Shown here piece after piece: positions 4,408 through 55,526 of a stretch of 64,000 bases of DNA (position 1 is the stretch's first letter; every line of letters starts with the position of its first letter). A program made the translations under genes and the position numbers. The stretch comes from a bacterium. Its GTDB lineage: Bacteria > Patescibacteriota > Minisyncoccia > UBA6257 > JAUSGH01. Where the stretch lies: positions 5,357 to 69,356 of the forward strand of contig JAUSGH010000002.1 of assembly GCA_030649055.1 (NCBI GenBank), written 5' to 3'. A model generated the notes under the pieces. The model did no database searches. It saw nothing but the letters and a program-made list of their open reading frames with translations, and was not told the origin of the DNA.

Positions 4408-6765
4408 CTATCCCCTCAGCCGCTTCATAATGTCTTCTTCGATTGCCCGCAAATCCCCTCCGTAACGCTTGCGGGATTGCTCGCGAAGAATATGCAGCGA
4501 ATCCTCTTGGTCCCTGGACGCGCGGATGGTTTGGATGTTAAAGGGAGGCGCTGTCTGCCCGCCAATCAGGAGCTTCGCGTACGCGTTGTAGTTATCAATG
4601 TTGATAAGGTCGCCTTTCGTAAACGTCGGCTCAAACTGCTTCACGAGAAACTCGGCATCCGCCGCTCCCACGCGGAACACGACTAAAGACCCGACGTTGC
4701 CGAACACCGCGTCGCGGATTTTCTCCTGCAGTTGCGCGATAAACTGGTGCGCAACAACGAGGTCTAGGTGATATTTGCGCGCCTCGGAAAGAATGGTGGC
4801 GATGGAATCCGTCGTAAAGTTTTGGAACTCATCAATGTAAAGATAAAAATCGCGCCGCTTCGGCTCCGGCACATCCACGCGCGATAATGATGCCATCAAA
4901 AGCTTCCCCACGATCACCATACCCAAAAGTCCGGCGTTAATGTCGCCGATGCGCCCCTTCGCGAGGTTCACGAGCAAAATTTTCCCTTCGTCCATCACTT
5001 TGCGGAAATTGAACGCCGACTTCCGCTGACCGATAATCGGGCGCACGTAATCGTTCGCGATGAAGTTGTTGAACTTGGAAGTGATATACGGCGTCATGTT
5101 GGCAAGCGACGCTTCGCCGCCGGCTTTCACCGCCTCTTTCTCCCAGAAATCAATTACCGTAGGGTTGTGAATCCGCGCGAGTTTTCGTTTCCGGAACTCC
5201 ACGTCCGTAAAAATACGCGGCACCTCCATCAGCGTTGCCGGTTCGTTCTCCGCGTCTTCCATCAGGAGCAGTAAGGCGTTCCGCATATACTGCTCAAACA
5301 TCGGGCCCATTGTTTCTTGCGAAAAAAGTTTATTGAAAATACCCTGCATTTCATTCACAATAAACGTCTTTTGCTCCGGATAATTCGGGTCATATTCCAG
5401 CATATTTAAGCCCAGCGGATACATCCGGTCGCCCGGGTCAAACACAATCACGTCGTCATAACGCTCCGGCGGAATTGCCGCGAGAATCGCGTCCACCAAA
5501 TCTCCATGCGGATCTATGATTGCCGCGCCTTTCCCGGCGGCGATGTCCGCCCGCACCATATTGACGAGCAGGTTAGATTTACCCGTGCCGGTCTGACCGA
5601 CAACATACACATGCCGCCGCCGATCCTCATCGGTAATATAAATCGGCTTGCGCTCGCCGCGATACAAACTTTCGCCGATAAGCGTGCCACCCTTAGGAAG
5701 CGCCGACGGAGGAGCCGCCTCGCGCGCCTTCACGGCCTTCACGCGCGGAATGTCCGTCGTCGCAATCGGGAAATGAAAAATACTCGCGAGTTCATCGGAG
5801 GAAAGTATCATCGCCTCACTAGAGTCATATTCGCGAAAAATATATTTATAAATGGCCTTGCGCGTGTCACTATATTGTTTCACCTGAAACTCGTTGCGCT
5901 GCGGCGAATAAAACTGCGCGAATGATCCGCTGAGTCCCTCCAATAATTCAGAAGCACGGTATGGCGTCGGCGCCGAAGCAATCAACCGCACATTCACGCT
6001 AAACAAAGGCTTGCTGATTTTTTGATCCAGCGCCTTAATCGCATCCTCGTCAATAATCTTTTGTTCTTTATCCTTTTTTTCTCTGTCCGCTTTGGAAAGC
6101 GGCAATTCAATGCGCGCATGCAACACGTGCTCCAGCTTTTCTCCTTTTTTGAGTTTTGAAATAAAATGCGAGATTTTTGACTTTGTTCCGCGCGGCGCTG
6201 CTGCCACAACAACCTGCAGGGCAATCCCCTCGCCCACCGTGTTCATTTTTGAGAAGTTACTGAGGAGAGGCGCGAACGTGTCCACTTTCGCCTCGGCGTA
6301 CGTGCGCACCGGCAACGCGTAATGCTTTTTGAGTTTCACGTACGCGGCAACCACCTCGCCCTGCGGGTTAAAAATGGTGTAGTCCTCATGCACGGTGTCC
6401 ACCTGCGATTGCGGCCACAGTCCCTGAATTTGCCGAGCGGCAAACTCCGCGTATGGCCGCTCCACCGCGATATAAAACACAATTTCCTCGCCAACATTAT
6501 GCACCGCGATTTCAAATACCGCAGGCGCGTCCGGTTTTACGAGCAACGACAGGAGCTGCGACGTAAGCGCAATTTCGTTCAACGGATCAGCGGTCGTTCC
6601 TTTGTGCTCTTCCGTCGCGCGCACCGGCAACCGCACCAAGAGCAGTCGGCGGTTCAGCGCCTGCGCCAGTCGCTGATGACGCAAATACCGCCGAAGAAAA
6701 TAACCCCCGACTATCGTAGCGCCAACCGCCGCGAATATGATACTGAATGTCAAAGGAGAAACCAT
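4408..6765 (-). CDS. VirD4/TraD/TraG-like (FtsK-HerA superfamily, DUF87-type) membrane-anchored ATPase
   Basis: 785 aa with an N-terminal TM helix. Walker A VYVVGQTGTGKSN followed by IIDPHGDL, Walker B YIDEFQNF, and VVAHQ, as in type IV secretion coupling proteins. Confidence 0.6.
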   Translation of the reverse strand: MVSPLTFSIIFAAVGATIVGGYFLRRYLRHQRLAQALNRRLLLVRLPVRATEEHKGTTADPLNEIALTSQLLSLLVKPDAPAVFEIAVHNVGEEIVFYIAVERPYAEFAARQIQGLWPQSQVDTVHEDYTIFNPQGEVVAAYVKLKKHYALPVRTYAEAKVDTFAPLLSNFSKMNTVGEGIALQVVVAAAPRGTKSKISHFISKLKKGEKLEHVLHARIELPLSKADREKKDKEQKIIDEDAIKALDQKISKPLFSVNVRLIASAPTPYRASELLEGLSGSFAQFYSPQRNEFQVKQYSDTRKAIYKYIFREYDSSEAMILSSDELASIFHFPIATTDIPRVKAVKAREAAPPSALPKGGTLIGESLYRGERKPIYITDEDRRRHVYVVGQTGTGKSNLLVNMVRADIAAGKGAAIIDPHGDLVDAILAAIPPERYDDVIVFDPGDRMYPLGLNMLEYDPNYPEQKTFIVNEMQGIFNKLFSQETMGPMFEQYMRNALLLLMEDAENEPATLMEVPRIFTDVEFRKRKLARIHNPTVIDFWEKEAVKAGGEASLANMTPYITSKFNNFIANDYVRPIIGQRKSAFNFRKVMDEGKILLVNLAKGRIGDINAGLLGMVIVGKLLMASLSRVDVPEPKRRDFYLYIDEFQNFTTDSIATILSEARKYHLDLVVAHQFIAQLQEKIRDAVFGNVGSLVVFRVGAADAEFLVKQFEPTFTKGDLINIDNYNAYAKLLIGGQTAPPFNIQTIRASRDQEDSLHILREQSRKRYGGDLRAIEEDIMKRLRG

Positions 6766-50907: not shown

Positions 50908-52107
50908 CTATTTGGTGATCTTTGTTACAACGCCTGCGCCCACGGTCTTGCCGCCTTCGCGGATGGCAAACCTCTGCTTTTCCTCAAGCGCCACCGGCGC
51001 GATGAGTTTTACCGTCATCTTCACCGTGTCGCCCGGCATCACCATTTCCATACCCGTCGGCAACGTCATTTCGCCCGTCACGTCCGTGGTGCGAATGTAG
51101 AACTGCGGCTTGTATCCGCCAAAAAACGGGGTGTGCCGTCCGCCTTCCTCTTTGGAAAGCACGTACACTTCGCAGTCAAAATCCGTATGCGGATTCACAC
51201 TGCCCGGCTTCGCGATGACCTGTCCGCGCTCCACGTCTTCTTTCTTCAAACCGCGAAGCAAAATACCCACGTTGTCTCCCGCGCGACCTTCGTCGAGCAG
51301 TTTATTGAACATTTCAATGCCGGTCACAACGGTTTTCTGCGTCGGCCGAAGACCGATGACGTCAACTTCCTCGTTGACTTTCGCGATACCGCGCTCAATG
51401 CGCCCGGTCACGACAGTTCCGCGTCCTTCAATAGAGAAGATGTCTTCGATCGGCATCAAGAACGGCTTCGTGATGTCACGGATCGGATCCGGGATAAATT
51501 CATCCAGCGCCTTCACAAGGTCAAAGATCGGTTTGCACGCCGGATCATCGACGGATTTTGCTTCAAGCGCCTTCAATGCTGAACCGCGGATAATCGGAGT
51601 CGTGTCACCCGGGAATTCGTATTTCGTCAAAAGCTCGCGGACTTCGGATTCAACGAGGTCGATGAGTTCCGGATCGTCCACCATGTCACACTTGTTCAAA
51701 AACACGACAAGCGCCGGCACGCCGACCTGGCGAGCAAGCAAAATGTGTTCTCTCGTCTGCGGCATCGGACCATCCGCCGCCGAAACAACAATGATCGCGC
51801 CGTCCATCTGAGCGGCACCCGTAATCATGTTCTTGATGTAGTCCGCGTGTCCTGGAGCATCAATGTGCGCATAGTGGCGCTTTTCGGATTCATATTCCGA
51901 GTGATGCAACGCAATGGTAATACCGCGCGCCTTTTCTTCCGGAGCGCTGTCAATCTGGTCCACGTTCTCCTCCTTCTTCGCGAGACCTTTCATAAAAAGG
52001 ACGTGCGTCAAGGCGGCCGTCAAGGTCGTTTTGCCGTGGTCAACGTGACCGATCGTTCCGACGTTTACGTGCGGCTTTGTACGCTCAAATTTTGCTTTTT
52101 CTGCCAT
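50908..52107 (-). CDS. tuf: elongation factor Tu
   Basis: [14 protein letters not shown]1 motif, [12 protein letters not shown], and the EF-Tu domains 2 and 3. 399 aa. Confidence 0.97.
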
Positions 52108-52439
52108 ATGCGTTTTTTAATTATTATTTTATAAAAATGTGTCGACGAAAACGATTATTAGTAAATGATAAACTATTGAGGGTAAAGATGTCAATACCCC
52201 GTGCCAAATGGCGAAGTATTGTTTAATCTTGCGGAGTATTCAGTGGTGACTACGCGTTATCCACACAAACATGTTAAATGCTACTGACCCTTTATGCTTC
52301 GCCATTTTGCACAGGGTCAATAGGGGCTCTGGGGATAGGCGCAGAGAGAAGTAAGACGTAAGAAATAAGAGGTAAGAAAAACGCAGACGGTCATTGCGAG
52401 TGAAGCGAAGCAATCTTACATTAAGAAATGTTCCCATAA

Positions 52440-53146
52440 AATGGAAGTGCCGTGAGTCAAATATATAAACGAGAAGGAGCCGTGAACCACGAAGGGTCCA
52501 CGGCTCCTGCTGCTACTCACGATGCTGTGCCTACTCGGCAAACCAGACACATCGGGCTGCCTCACCCACCTAGATCCATGCTTGCTGCGATGAGATGGGG
52601 GCGAGAGTCCGAGCATTGCGGTCTGCGCGAGGCAGTCATGTGAGGTTGGGACGGTTGCCCATGATCCTCAACGATCCAACGTTGAATAAGGAAAGGGCAC
52701 GTGTCCCGGGTGCTTGCGTTAGGCACGAGGTTCACTCGACAGCGTCACACGGACGCATAGCTACAGAAACGGCTTGTGGTCCCTGTAGTCACGGTGCCGT
52801 GGTCAGGCCGAGGCGCCCGTCGAGGTCGAGGTGCTTGGTCGAGCTGGTCGTCGAGAATGTCAATTCATAGCACACCAGACAGACCAGCGCGGGATCCCGA
52901 AGTCTCATGATGAGCTCCTTAGTTCGAGTCCTTGTTGGAGCCGCAAGTGACACACACTCGCTTGACCCAGCGAGACAGGGCGGGCGCCTCCGGAGTCCGA
53001 AAACATCCGGAAGCGCCCGAGAGGGTACTTTCTCGTGCATTACCCGTTAGGGCGGCGCTCGGGACATGACCCACTCCTTTTCTCCCCCAAACGCATTAGC
53101 GGGGGCAATAGCGTCATTTGGAAGGTGCTGTCAATCTCAATCGTTA
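52440..53146 (-). other. ORF-poor GC-rich hairpin-rich transcribed region (candidate large structured RNA or long leader) downstream of a sigma-70 promoter
   Basis: No ORF longer than about 100 codons and no recognisable protein. Multiple perfect hairpins (e.g. GGAGCCGTG...CACGGCTCC, GGCGCCTCCGGA...TCCGGAAGCGCC). An internal SD-preceded 39-codon ORF at 52789..52908. Confidence 0.4.
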
Positions 53147-53153
53147 AACGCCA

Positions 53154-53182
53154 GTATACACCCTCCCGAGTGTTTTGTCAAG
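53154..53182 (-). promoter_or_regulatory. near-consensus sigma-70 promoter (TTGACA-17 nt-TATACT) reading leftward toward the GC-rich region and tuf
   Basis: Minus strand GGGTCTTGACAAAACACTCGGGAGGGTGTATACTGGCG. The -35 is at 53182-53177 and the -10 at 53159-53154. Confidence 0.6.
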
Positions 53183-53191
53183 ACCCTCTGG

Positions 53192-53292
53192 GTAGAAGCG
53201 GATTAACGCGGATTTTACACGCGCGGAACCACGCGGAAGCTTTTTTCCGCGTTTATCTGCGTTGTCATCCGCGTCTTTCCGCTTCTATATCT
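53192..53292. repeat. ATCCGCG-type repeat cluster (family E), direct and inverted copies, immediately upstream of the promoter
   Basis: GTAGAAGCGGATTAACGCGGATTTT...CCGCGTTTATCTGCGTTGTCATCCGCGTCTTTCCGCTTCTATATCTCC. Confidence 0.6.
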
Positions 53293-53803
53293 CCACATCT
53301 CCGCACGCCACATACACCTTCACCTCTTCACTGTTTTTGTGGACATTAATCGCAAGCGGCAACTGCGCCTTTAATGCATCCAGTGAAACATCAAGCACGG
53401 AGTCGGATGCGCCGCCCACCAGATACGCAAGCGGATATTTAACCGCTCCCGGATTCGGGCACGCGCCTATGTGAATGTGCGCCGGCTGACTCACGCCACT
53501 CGGCGCGCCGGTAAGCTTCAACGCTACGCGAGTTTTCCCTCCAACGTCTGTGAGCGTCGCGGTGCCGAATTCGCCGGACTTGTTTTGCGCGGAAAGCTCC
53601 ACAACAACCGAATTCGCCTCAACGGCTTCGGAATCCAGCACAAACTCCTCGTCTAATAACACAACATCTGCATCAGACAACATATCCAAATCCTCGGTCA
53701 ACGAAGCACCGCGTCCGTTAAACATAACAACGAGCACCGCCACCGCAACGATCCCCACAAAAATAAGTAAATAGTTTTTCATATATTTATTATACAACAT
53801 CAA
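53285..53803 (-). CDS. secreted CHRD-domain-like protein
   Basis: Signal anchor LLIFVGIVAVAVLVVMF. The motif SQPAHIHIGACPNPGAVKYPL resembles the CHRD-domain AHIHxG pattern. Confidence 0.5.
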   Translation of the reverse strand: MMLYNKYMKNYLLIFVGIVAVAVLVVMFNGRGASLTEDLDMLSDADVVLLDEEFVLDSEAVEANSVVVELSAQNKSGEFGTATLTDVGGKTRVALKLTGAPSGVSQPAHIHIGACPNPGAVKYPLAYLVGGASDSVLDVSLDALKAQLPLAINVHKNSEEVKVYVACGDVEI

Positions 53804-53814
53804 CTACGATAAGA

Positions 53815-54140
53815 GTGCCGCGCCGCAGGCGCTACCTTATCATCACTCACTCACCAACGTGAGGAGAAGGACGAAAAAGCGTTTTTACTTCTGCGCGAAC
53901 CATAAGCGCAGCGACGGTAGTAAAATAGGAATTCAAAAGGGTGCCTTGTTCATTTTAGGCAACATATTGCAGCGATGCGTGAAATTCACGAGTAAAGAAA
54001 TCGCGAAGTCGGAACAATGGCGCTGTGTGAATCCCGAAACCCCCGCAGTGCGGGGGTGAAGGTTGAGTTCGCCTTGTTCCGGTAACTTTCGCGGTTTCTT
54101 ACGAGTAGAATTTCCGCGAGCGGAAATCGTTGCCGAAAAT
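53815..54140. other. conserved multi-hairpin element, copy 3 of 3
   Basis: The core is identical to copy 1 (CGAAGTCGGAACAATGGCGCTGTGTGAATCCCG ... GAAGGTTGAGTTCGCCTTGTTCCGGTAAC). The central hairpin is replaced by CCCCCGC-AGT-GCGGGGG and the 5' hairpin by GCGCC-GCAG-GCGC. Confidence 0.6.
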
Positions 54141-54163
54141 AAACAAGGCGACCGAGAGACAAA

Positions 54164-55216: not shown

Positions 55217-55526
55217 ATATAAACGGAAATCTTTCCCTTTAGGAAAGATGTAATAATGTATCTTTCCCCGCGTTCGACAACGCGCGAGCATGACGCTCAA
55301 AGGGCTGGAATTGACACTACGTTTCCGTTTTCGAAATGGATCCCGGGTCTACTGCCTCGGGATTGTTTTTCGATTACAAAAAACAAGTTGTCGCCGGATC
55401 TTCGGGCCAGTTCCCGCACACGCGAAACAGTTCGCGCAATTCCCCGGACTCTTGATGATTAAGTTGTAACTTCTACTATAGCTTCCAATATATCAAACTC
55501 GAAAATAAACGCAAGAGTTTCGCTAT

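Follow-up and report, generated by a model that had tools for sequence, protein, structure and literature searches.

A putative RNA element with a RAPP mini-ORF upstream of tuf in Candidatus Harrisonbacteria

The 64,000-nt stretch of contig JAUSGH010000002.1 analysed here, which we call the window, carries on its minus strand, immediately upstream of tuf, what appears to be an RNA element that is undescribed and confined to one lineage. It stands out most for a six-codon open reading frame (ORF) predicted to encode a peptide ending in Arg-Ala-Pro-Pro (RAPP), and any function ascribed to it is read from sequence and comparison. EF-Tu and the neighbouring proteins assign the window to Candidatus Harrisonbacteria, within the Patescibacteria or candidate phyla radiation (CPR). 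The explanation that we prefer, and hold as plausible rather than probable, is that the unit is a ribosome-stalling leader RNA of the RxPP (Arg-x-Pro-Pro) kind, whose cargo ORF has been truncated in this genome.

The unit is discrete, with about 680 nt enclosed between a promoter and a terminator of its own. The promoter, P1 (TTGACA, a 17-nt spacer and TATACT; 53181-53153, minus strand), matches the sigma-70 consensus at 11 of 12 positions and puts the predicted transcript start at A53145. Sites of this quality are rare: the 64-kb window has only five when both strands are counted, where shuffled sequence would be expected to give 0.6, and P1 and the tuf promoter P2 are two of those five. Both hexamers and their spacing are kept in the homologous loci L081, L084, L147 and L148/L150, and AACGATTG begins 7 nt past the -10 hexamer in the window, L147 and L148. 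The near-consensus minus-strand promoter proposed from the letters of the window, in what we call the sequence-only reading, is thus real in the sense of being both rare in the window and conserved in five variants. The other boundary, which that reading overlooked, is an intrinsic terminator (52465..52508, minus strand) made of a 14-bp GC-rich hairpin and a U-rich tail (52508-52475); it is homologous to the terminator of L147, with a compensatory G-C to A-U change. The two signals have the expected form, with a hexamer spacing within 16-18 nt in the one and a hairpin followed by a U tract in the other, and both are kept in homologues.

Between these boundaries the unit is essentially non-coding. 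No reading frame of the region, among all six, has a Pfam match at E<=1, and the periodicity of GC content by codon position is absent from the unit except over one 39-codon ORF, which agrees with the earlier view that no ORF here has protein-like features. The GC content was also said to be clearly higher than that of the flanks; the rise is real but modest in size (0.58-0.62 in the unit, 0.51-0.56 in tuf and 0.35-0.46 in the tuf leader). The minimum free energy (MFE) of the unit is -287 kcal/mol, compared with -251 +/- 7 for shuffled sequences (z = -5.1), and the L147 and L148 elements, which have no codon periodicity either, give z = -6.6 and -6.2. As the opposite strand of the window gives z = -3.6, folding energy alone is a weak guide to the strand, which was assigned from the promoter, the terminator, the Shine-Dalgarno (SD) sites and the G-U pairs of hairpin H1. 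P1, the folding and the lack of periodicity together uphold the core of the sequence-only reading, a strong promoter firing into a structured, essentially non-coding segment.

The Infernal/Rfam scan that had been suggested as a check did not connect the unit with a known family: among 4227 Rfam families there was no match at the gathering score across the whole window, none at E<=10 within 52000-53400, and none on the homologous elements. ARAGORN returned no match. The defining features of tmRNA, RNase P, 6S, T-box and type I toxin RNAs were not seen. A boxA/Nus antitermination site at the 5' end was also considered and rejected, the similar bases lying mostly upstream of the predicted transcript start.

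Comparison of contigs fetched through the neighbouring proteins, together with 80 tuf loci of GTDB species representatives, yielded homologues at the same locus in four further Candidatus Harrisonbacteria variants. L081 is a long form that is ended by the contig end (nhmmer E = 7e-16), and L084 has the 5' end only. L147 is full length and is followed by a 100-aa gene and then tuf, and L148, L149, L150 and L154 carry near-identical copies between metK and tuf. The element is absent from the 80 tuf loci of other species, from the closest relative L146 (EF-Tu 98%) and from L082, both of which hold an unrelated orphan gene, protX (165-180 aa), at that place, and from L151-153 (EF-Tu 92%). A covariance model of hairpins H1-H2 found nothing new, phage records and viral-contig patterns gave no match, and a metagenome scan with the promoter pattern CTTGACAAA-N6-GGNAGGGTGTA, which is not an internal motif, recovered 57 generic promoters and no homologue. 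Given its absence from the closest relative and from 80 other tuf loci, the unit is accessory, and as far as sampled it is restricted to a few Candidatus Harrisonbacteria.

Each variant is a mosaic of shuffled modules. Common to all five, by alignment and nhmmer, are the conserved 5' end, module M1 (AACGAUUGAGAUUGACAGCACCUUCC; 53120..53145, minus strand), which follows the pattern AACGAUUGA.AUACGACAG.ACCUU, and the mini-ORF; apart from the promoter nothing else is shared throughout, with H1 and H2 absent from the L148 type and the 3' module M5 absent from L147. M5 (52644..52771, minus strand) has a long interrupted hairpin at its core (52707-52648) and is shared with L148, L149, L150 and L154 (nhmmer E = 4e-21) as a 100-nt module that is about 97% identical within unalignable flanks. 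The window and L147 are strongly diverged, yet both keep the promoter, mini-ORF, H1 and terminator, and neither has a long ORF.

Mini-ORF 1 (ATG TCC CGA GCG CCG CCC TAA, or MSRAPP-stop; 53067-53047, minus strand) is preceded by the SD sequence GGAG at 53077-53074. In every variant a strong SD stands 4-6 nt before a start codon that opens a frame of 6-9 codons, some 65-110 nt past the 5' end. Three of the five variants encode M[ST]R[AD]PP, namely MSRAPP-stop in the window, MTRAPP-stop in L147 and MSRDPPLR-stop in L081. Among these three sequences all five third codon positions vary, but only 2 of the 10 first and second positions do (Fisher exact P ~0.007 from the counts; binomial P 0.045; n = 3 sequences), and the replacements are Ser/Thr and Ala/Asp. 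RNA pairing alone would not readily give such a three-base rhythm, which argues for selection acting on the peptide, and by this measure the mini-ORF is conserved at the peptide level. Random sequence of matched composition yields RxPP in 0.18% of the short ORFs that follow an SD. The long ORF of L081 likewise starts M-R-H-P-P. Endings of the Pro-stop kind also slow termination. RxPP, including RAPP, is an established ribosome-arrest motif that is not relieved by EF-P (PMC10951233, PMC12992588). The frame singled out in the sequence-only reading was the 39-codon ORF; the conserved frame is this six-codon one, which had gone unflagged. In L148 (L148:2445-2590) a tandem duplication of about 71 nt includes the SD and the mini-ORF MLMIAGRPT-stop, which are single-copy in the near-identical L150 and L154.

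Downstream of the mini-ORF, the window, L147 and L081 share two hairpins and a second SD-ATG. H1 (53018-52982, minus strand) has 16 bp, one bulged base and a UUCG tetraloop, and corresponds to the GGCGCC...CGCC helix that had been picked out by eye. Across these three variants 4 of its 16 pairs have both bases replaced and still pair; 96% of cells are paired, against 29-51% with the partner strand slid, and the hairpin holds G-U pairs that are possible on this strand only. The alignment with syntenic regions proposed earlier thus did bring out a helix, H1 with its four compensatory pairs, from too few homologues for covariation statistics. H2 (52957..52974, minus strand) has a CUCGC/GCGAG stem that is invariant in the three variants, with a loop that differs in length and sequence. 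Beyond it, an anti-SD/SD2 hairpin (GGCUCC...GGAGCU; 52913..52942, minus strand; GGCCCUUC...GGAGGUCC in L147) sequesters the ribosome-binding site of the 39-codon ORF, ORF2, in MFE folds, the SD2 core having a probability of being unpaired of 0.17-0.27.

The folded body could also be read as an end in itself, a stand-alone, trans-acting large structured RNA of a new CPR non-coding class, with its function in H1, H2 and the M5 body and with the mini-ORF being only a ribosome-binding 5' stabiliser, or incidental. We consider this unlikely. It would suit a unit with its own promoter and terminator, with folding z of -5 to -6.6 in three variants, with covariation in H1 and with an M5 that is ~97% identical between variants otherwise unalignable; it would also suit the lack of conservation of ORF2, and the fact that the window and L147 have kept promoter, mini-ORF, H1 and terminator with no long ORF behind them. 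However, the want of any universal module beyond the 5' end and mini-ORF makes a single tertiary architecture unlikely, the closest relative does without the unit, and no Rfam family matches it. Large structured RNAs such as ROOL, GOLLD, OLE, raiA and HEARO share with it a length of 0.5-0.7 kb, their own promoter and terminator, strong folding, a GC content above that of the surroundings and a patchy distribution. It differs from them in giving no covariance-model match at E<=10, in having no architecture common to all variants and in carrying translated-looking mini-ORFs.

In the stalling-leader explanation, P1 would yield a mostly non-coding, strongly folded RNA of about 680 nt that is ended by its own terminator before P2. 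Its conserved 5' order would run from the fixed 5' end through the SD and mini-ORF to H1 and H2, and then to a second ribosome-binding site held in the anti-SD hairpin. A ribosome would initiate on the mini-ORF and stall at RAPP, with a chain ending Pro-Pro-stop, and the stalled ribosome would remodel the leader or shield the RNA from decay, and the expression of any sequence behind the second start codon would be set by the stall. In this genome only 39 codons of the cargo would be left, with some 300 nt of structured RNA behind them. The regulatory step could alternatively consist in protection of the RNA from decay by the stalled ribosome, or in the folded body acting in trans. Transcription itself, the stalling and the regulatory consequence are all steps that we infer from the arrangement of signals and its conservation.

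Several observations weigh against this explanation. A six-residue chain may be too short to stall: known RAPP arrest peptides have tens of residues or more and need upstream N-terminal residues for full arrest, and chains of 6-8 residues do not fill the tunnel as those do. The mini-ORFs of the other two variants, MLMIAGRPT-stop and MLKVFN-stop, have no RxPP. The Pro-Pro codons double as the 5' arm of a small hairpin in three variants, and RNA structure may add to their conservation. In a thermodynamic model, the accessibility of SD2 stayed the same in the window, L147 and L081 when the bases covered by a stalled ribosome were kept single-stranded, and a simple switch of the SecM/MifM type is unsupported, this constraint folding having had no effect on SD2. 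M5 and the 3' 300 nt are left unexplained, the long ORF of L081 has no homologue among 5.8 billion proteins, and with only five variants known, two of them incomplete, the covariation lies beyond a statistical test.

The closest parallels are the RAPP/RxPP upstream ORFs (uORFs), among them ApdA, ApdP and ApcA, the Bordetella CruR and the RAPP/RGPP uORFs of Streptomyces, which have in common with the present case an Arg-x-Pro-Pro at the C-terminus of a small uORF, a structured leader behind it with a sequestered downstream ribosome-binding site, a GC-rich composition and, in L081, a downstream gene that would encode a secreted protein. Such uORFs are common in Actinomycetota (PMC12992588, PMC10951233, PMC7897499). 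By the features that define them, the RxPP at or near the C-terminus is present here in three variants, along with an SD and a codon-position pattern of selection. The differences are that there are 6-8 codons here compared with tens to >100; that the mini-ORF has no signal or membrane segment, which leaves no room for force sensing; that SD2 lies about 150 nt away and is not opened by the modelled stalled ribosome; and that the motif is missing in two variants, with no substantial downstream gene in the window or L147.

Two other groups of leaders offer looser parallels. In Salmonella, mgtL of mgtA and mgtP of mgtCBR are mini-ORFs with Pro codons, at which ribosome speed is thought to select between alternative structures. 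Shared with them are a very short ORF, consecutive Pro codons, a long structured leader and more than one short ORF; there is, however, no sequence or Rfam relationship, the regulated genes are others, and no alternative terminator/antiterminator pair is identifiable beside the mini-ORF. The ermC leader and the cryIIIA STAB-SD stabilise an RNA from its 5' end by means of a ribosome that is bound or stalled there, and the strong SD and stall site predicted near the 5' end of a long RNA resemble them by analogy only. There is also a variant explanation, distinctly unlikely in our estimate, in which the 0.55-0.7-kb elements are an undescribed family of CPR structured RNAs that load and arrest a ribosome on a six-codon RAPP mini-ORF, then the shortest natural RAPP arrest unit, and use the ribosome-bound state in its own right, rather than as the leader of a lost gene. 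The RNA might, for instance, regulate in a stabilised form, or sense the capacity for translation beside the tuf-S10-spc operon.

What the leader of the stalling explanation would once have served is suggested by ORF2 (39 codons; 52908-52789, minus strand), which has AAGGAG upstream and, with a GC content at third codon positions (GC3) of 0.82, is the sole periodic part of the unit. Its start region aligns to L081:1669, where the frame runs for at least 135 codons with a GC3 of ~0.9 and begins with a signal-peptide-like sequence (MRHPPLMLMLCMIVMSCFVFA), and we take this L081 ORF to be a real gene for a predicted secreted protein. ORF2 is probably the truncated start of a gene of this type. The homologous ATG in L147 reads MPFL-stop, a frame of four codons. 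The 39-aa product, compared with 1.84 billion representative proteins, has one match, a tandem-repeat artefact protein, and in translated comparisons of the 3' half of the window's unit with the L081 ORF and protX nothing was significant. The 39-codon ORF noticed earlier therefore exists and has its AAGGAG, but it is neither conserved nor endowed with a real homologue.

The same facts can be taken to mean that the whole unit is a decaying remnant of a horizontally acquired cassette, a leader plus a secreted-protein gene as in L081, now functionless though perhaps transcribed. This is a serious contender, if somewhat unlikely. ORF2 aligns to the start of the L081 gene, retains its residual GC3 and is truncated; the interval has also lost protX and gained an insertion that resembles a miniature inverted-repeat transposable element (MITE); presence and absence vary among close relatives; and the L081 ORF and protX have GC3 values of 0.8-0.95, unlike tuf. 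Decay does not, however, readily account for the fact that the window and L147 both retain promoter, mini-ORF, H1 and terminator, although their alignable parts are otherwise highly divergent. The synonymous-site pattern of the mini-ORF and the compensatory pairs of H1 and the terminator argue for purifying selection after loss of the long ORF. Of the identities offered in the sequence-only reading, a leader-peptide riboregulator and an acquired segment each capture part of this comparative evidence.

The interval between the terminator and tuf, described earlier as an AT-rich leader of ~330 nt, does have a lower GC content but is a composite of a protX terminator arm, a MITE-like insertion and a normal tuf promoter. 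The orphan gene protX (100-180 aa) occurs at L082:944-1441, L146:3201-3743 and L147:3377-3679, and its products share a ...Y.RLTPE.Y... motif, with a GC3 of 0.8-0.95 and no Pfam match. L147 carries both the element and protX; all that the window keeps is cacggcacttcc (52440-52456, minus strand), a match to the 3' arm of the hairpin that terminates the 100-aa gene of L147. By this remnant, protX has been deleted in the window with half its terminator left behind. The insertion (119 nt; 52197..52315, no strand assigned) has terminal inverted repeats of 18-20 nt and is flanked by a 7-bp duplication, TATTGAC, at 52322-52316 and 52196-52190, with an empty site holding a single TATTGAC in L082 and L146. 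In its inverted-repeat ends, its duplicated target and the empty site of relatives it conforms to a MITE; it is single-copy in the 64-kb window, however, and none was found in 159 loci. The 13-bp stem reported from this stretch is there, but it consists of the terminal inverted repeats of this insertion, which relatives lack.

The TATTGAC duplication restores the -35 hexamer of P2 (TTGACA-18-TATCAT; 52194-52165, minus strand), which matches the consensus at 11 of 12 positions and is kept in L082, L146 and L147; a promoter for tuf had rightly been placed here, but it is not the weaker one supposed. P1 and P2 also resemble each other ahead of the -35 hexamer (CCCAGAG...TTGAC). In L082, L084 and L146 the terminator hairpin of a CHRD-like gene has as both its arms a ~30-nt sequence, cttacytcttatttcttacgtcttacttct, which occurs a third time shortly before the tuf promoter in the window and L082 (window 52344-52377; L082:747-778 and 807-840; L084:553-646). 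This repeat may be a recombination site for the variable interval.

The position of P2 bears on whether the unit is a long leader or attenuator of the tuf-S10-spc operon, in which a ribosomal protein, or translation of the mini-ORF, would set how often the terminator is read through and would thereby adjust the expression of tuf and the ribosomal proteins. In all complete cases the next gene downstream is indeed tuf (in L147, protX and then tuf), read in the same direction, and two strong promoters stand in tandem. However, the unit is dispensable, since L146, L082 and L151-153 are without it and keep P2; the strong terminator and an independent 11/12 promoter stand between it and tuf; Rfam searches found no ribosomal-protein leader; and some 550 nt separate the mini-ORF from the terminator, too great a distance for the two to be coupled directly. 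We regard this explanation as very unlikely, and the unit cannot be a fixture of the operon when the closest relative has none.

The gene order also disposes of the premise that fusA, rpsG and rpsL should precede tuf. On the minus strand of the window the order is ATP synthase genes, metK, a CHRD-like gene for a secreted protein of 165 aa (53782-53288, minus strand), the region studied, tuf (52107-50908, minus strand), S10 and further ribosomal-protein genes. In relatives with a 94-98% identical EF-Tu the order is metK-(CHRD-like gene)-...-tuf rather than fusA-tuf; with metK in this place there as well, a tuf not preceded by fusA is normal for the lineage. A fusA-tuf junction in homologous genomes, with the segment aligning to decayed coding sequence, was looked for and not found. 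That the unit is a degraded pseudogene of fusA or another gene of the str operon has its position upstream of tuf in its favour and nothing else, and is effectively refuted: the six-frame Pfam scan was empty, the region has no codon periodicity, the relatives' order is metK-...-tuf, and the aligned homologues of the segment are non-coding.

The CHRD-like neighbour has no Pfam match of its own, and many of its homologues have CHRD or cupredoxin/copper-binding domains. More distant homologues of it stand in another gene order with the element absent. RAPP uORFs have been described upstream of copper-related genes (PMC12992588); a link to copper is not shown here, as the RNA element sits downstream, not upstream, of the CHRD-like gene. 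The intergenic region between metK and this gene (53783-54163, 380 nt) contains several hairpins, and ~100 nt of it (53816-53920) upstream of the CHRD-like gene are kept in L150, which does not have the gene. Upstream of metK, a sub-threshold SAM-I riboswitch match (55255-55431, minus strand) recurs at the same position in L147 (L147:781-954); the two genomes score 26 and 30.9 bits where the gathering score is 44.4, and the match is probably a divergent SAM riboswitch missed at the standard threshold. Elsewhere in the window, a 785-aa protein (4408-6765, minus strand) with TrwB/TraG-type coupling-protein and HerA-like ATPase domains may be a component of a DNA-transfer or uptake apparatus.

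If the unit were merely a decaying cassette, the value of the present analysis would be confined to annotation, in that there is no fusA remnant and the 39-codon ORF is not to be annotated as a gene. The stretch beside tuf forms a small hot spot of recombination, holding RNA modules, an orphan gene and a MITE-like element, and its contents differ among genomes whose EF-Tu is 94-98% identical. If the mini-ORF does stall ribosomes, RAPP arrest would be workable and selectable in six residues, without a tunnel-filling or force-sensing part. Stalling at this mini-ORF would also extend regulation by arrest peptides to the CPR/Patescibacteria, whose regulatory repertoire is poorly known.

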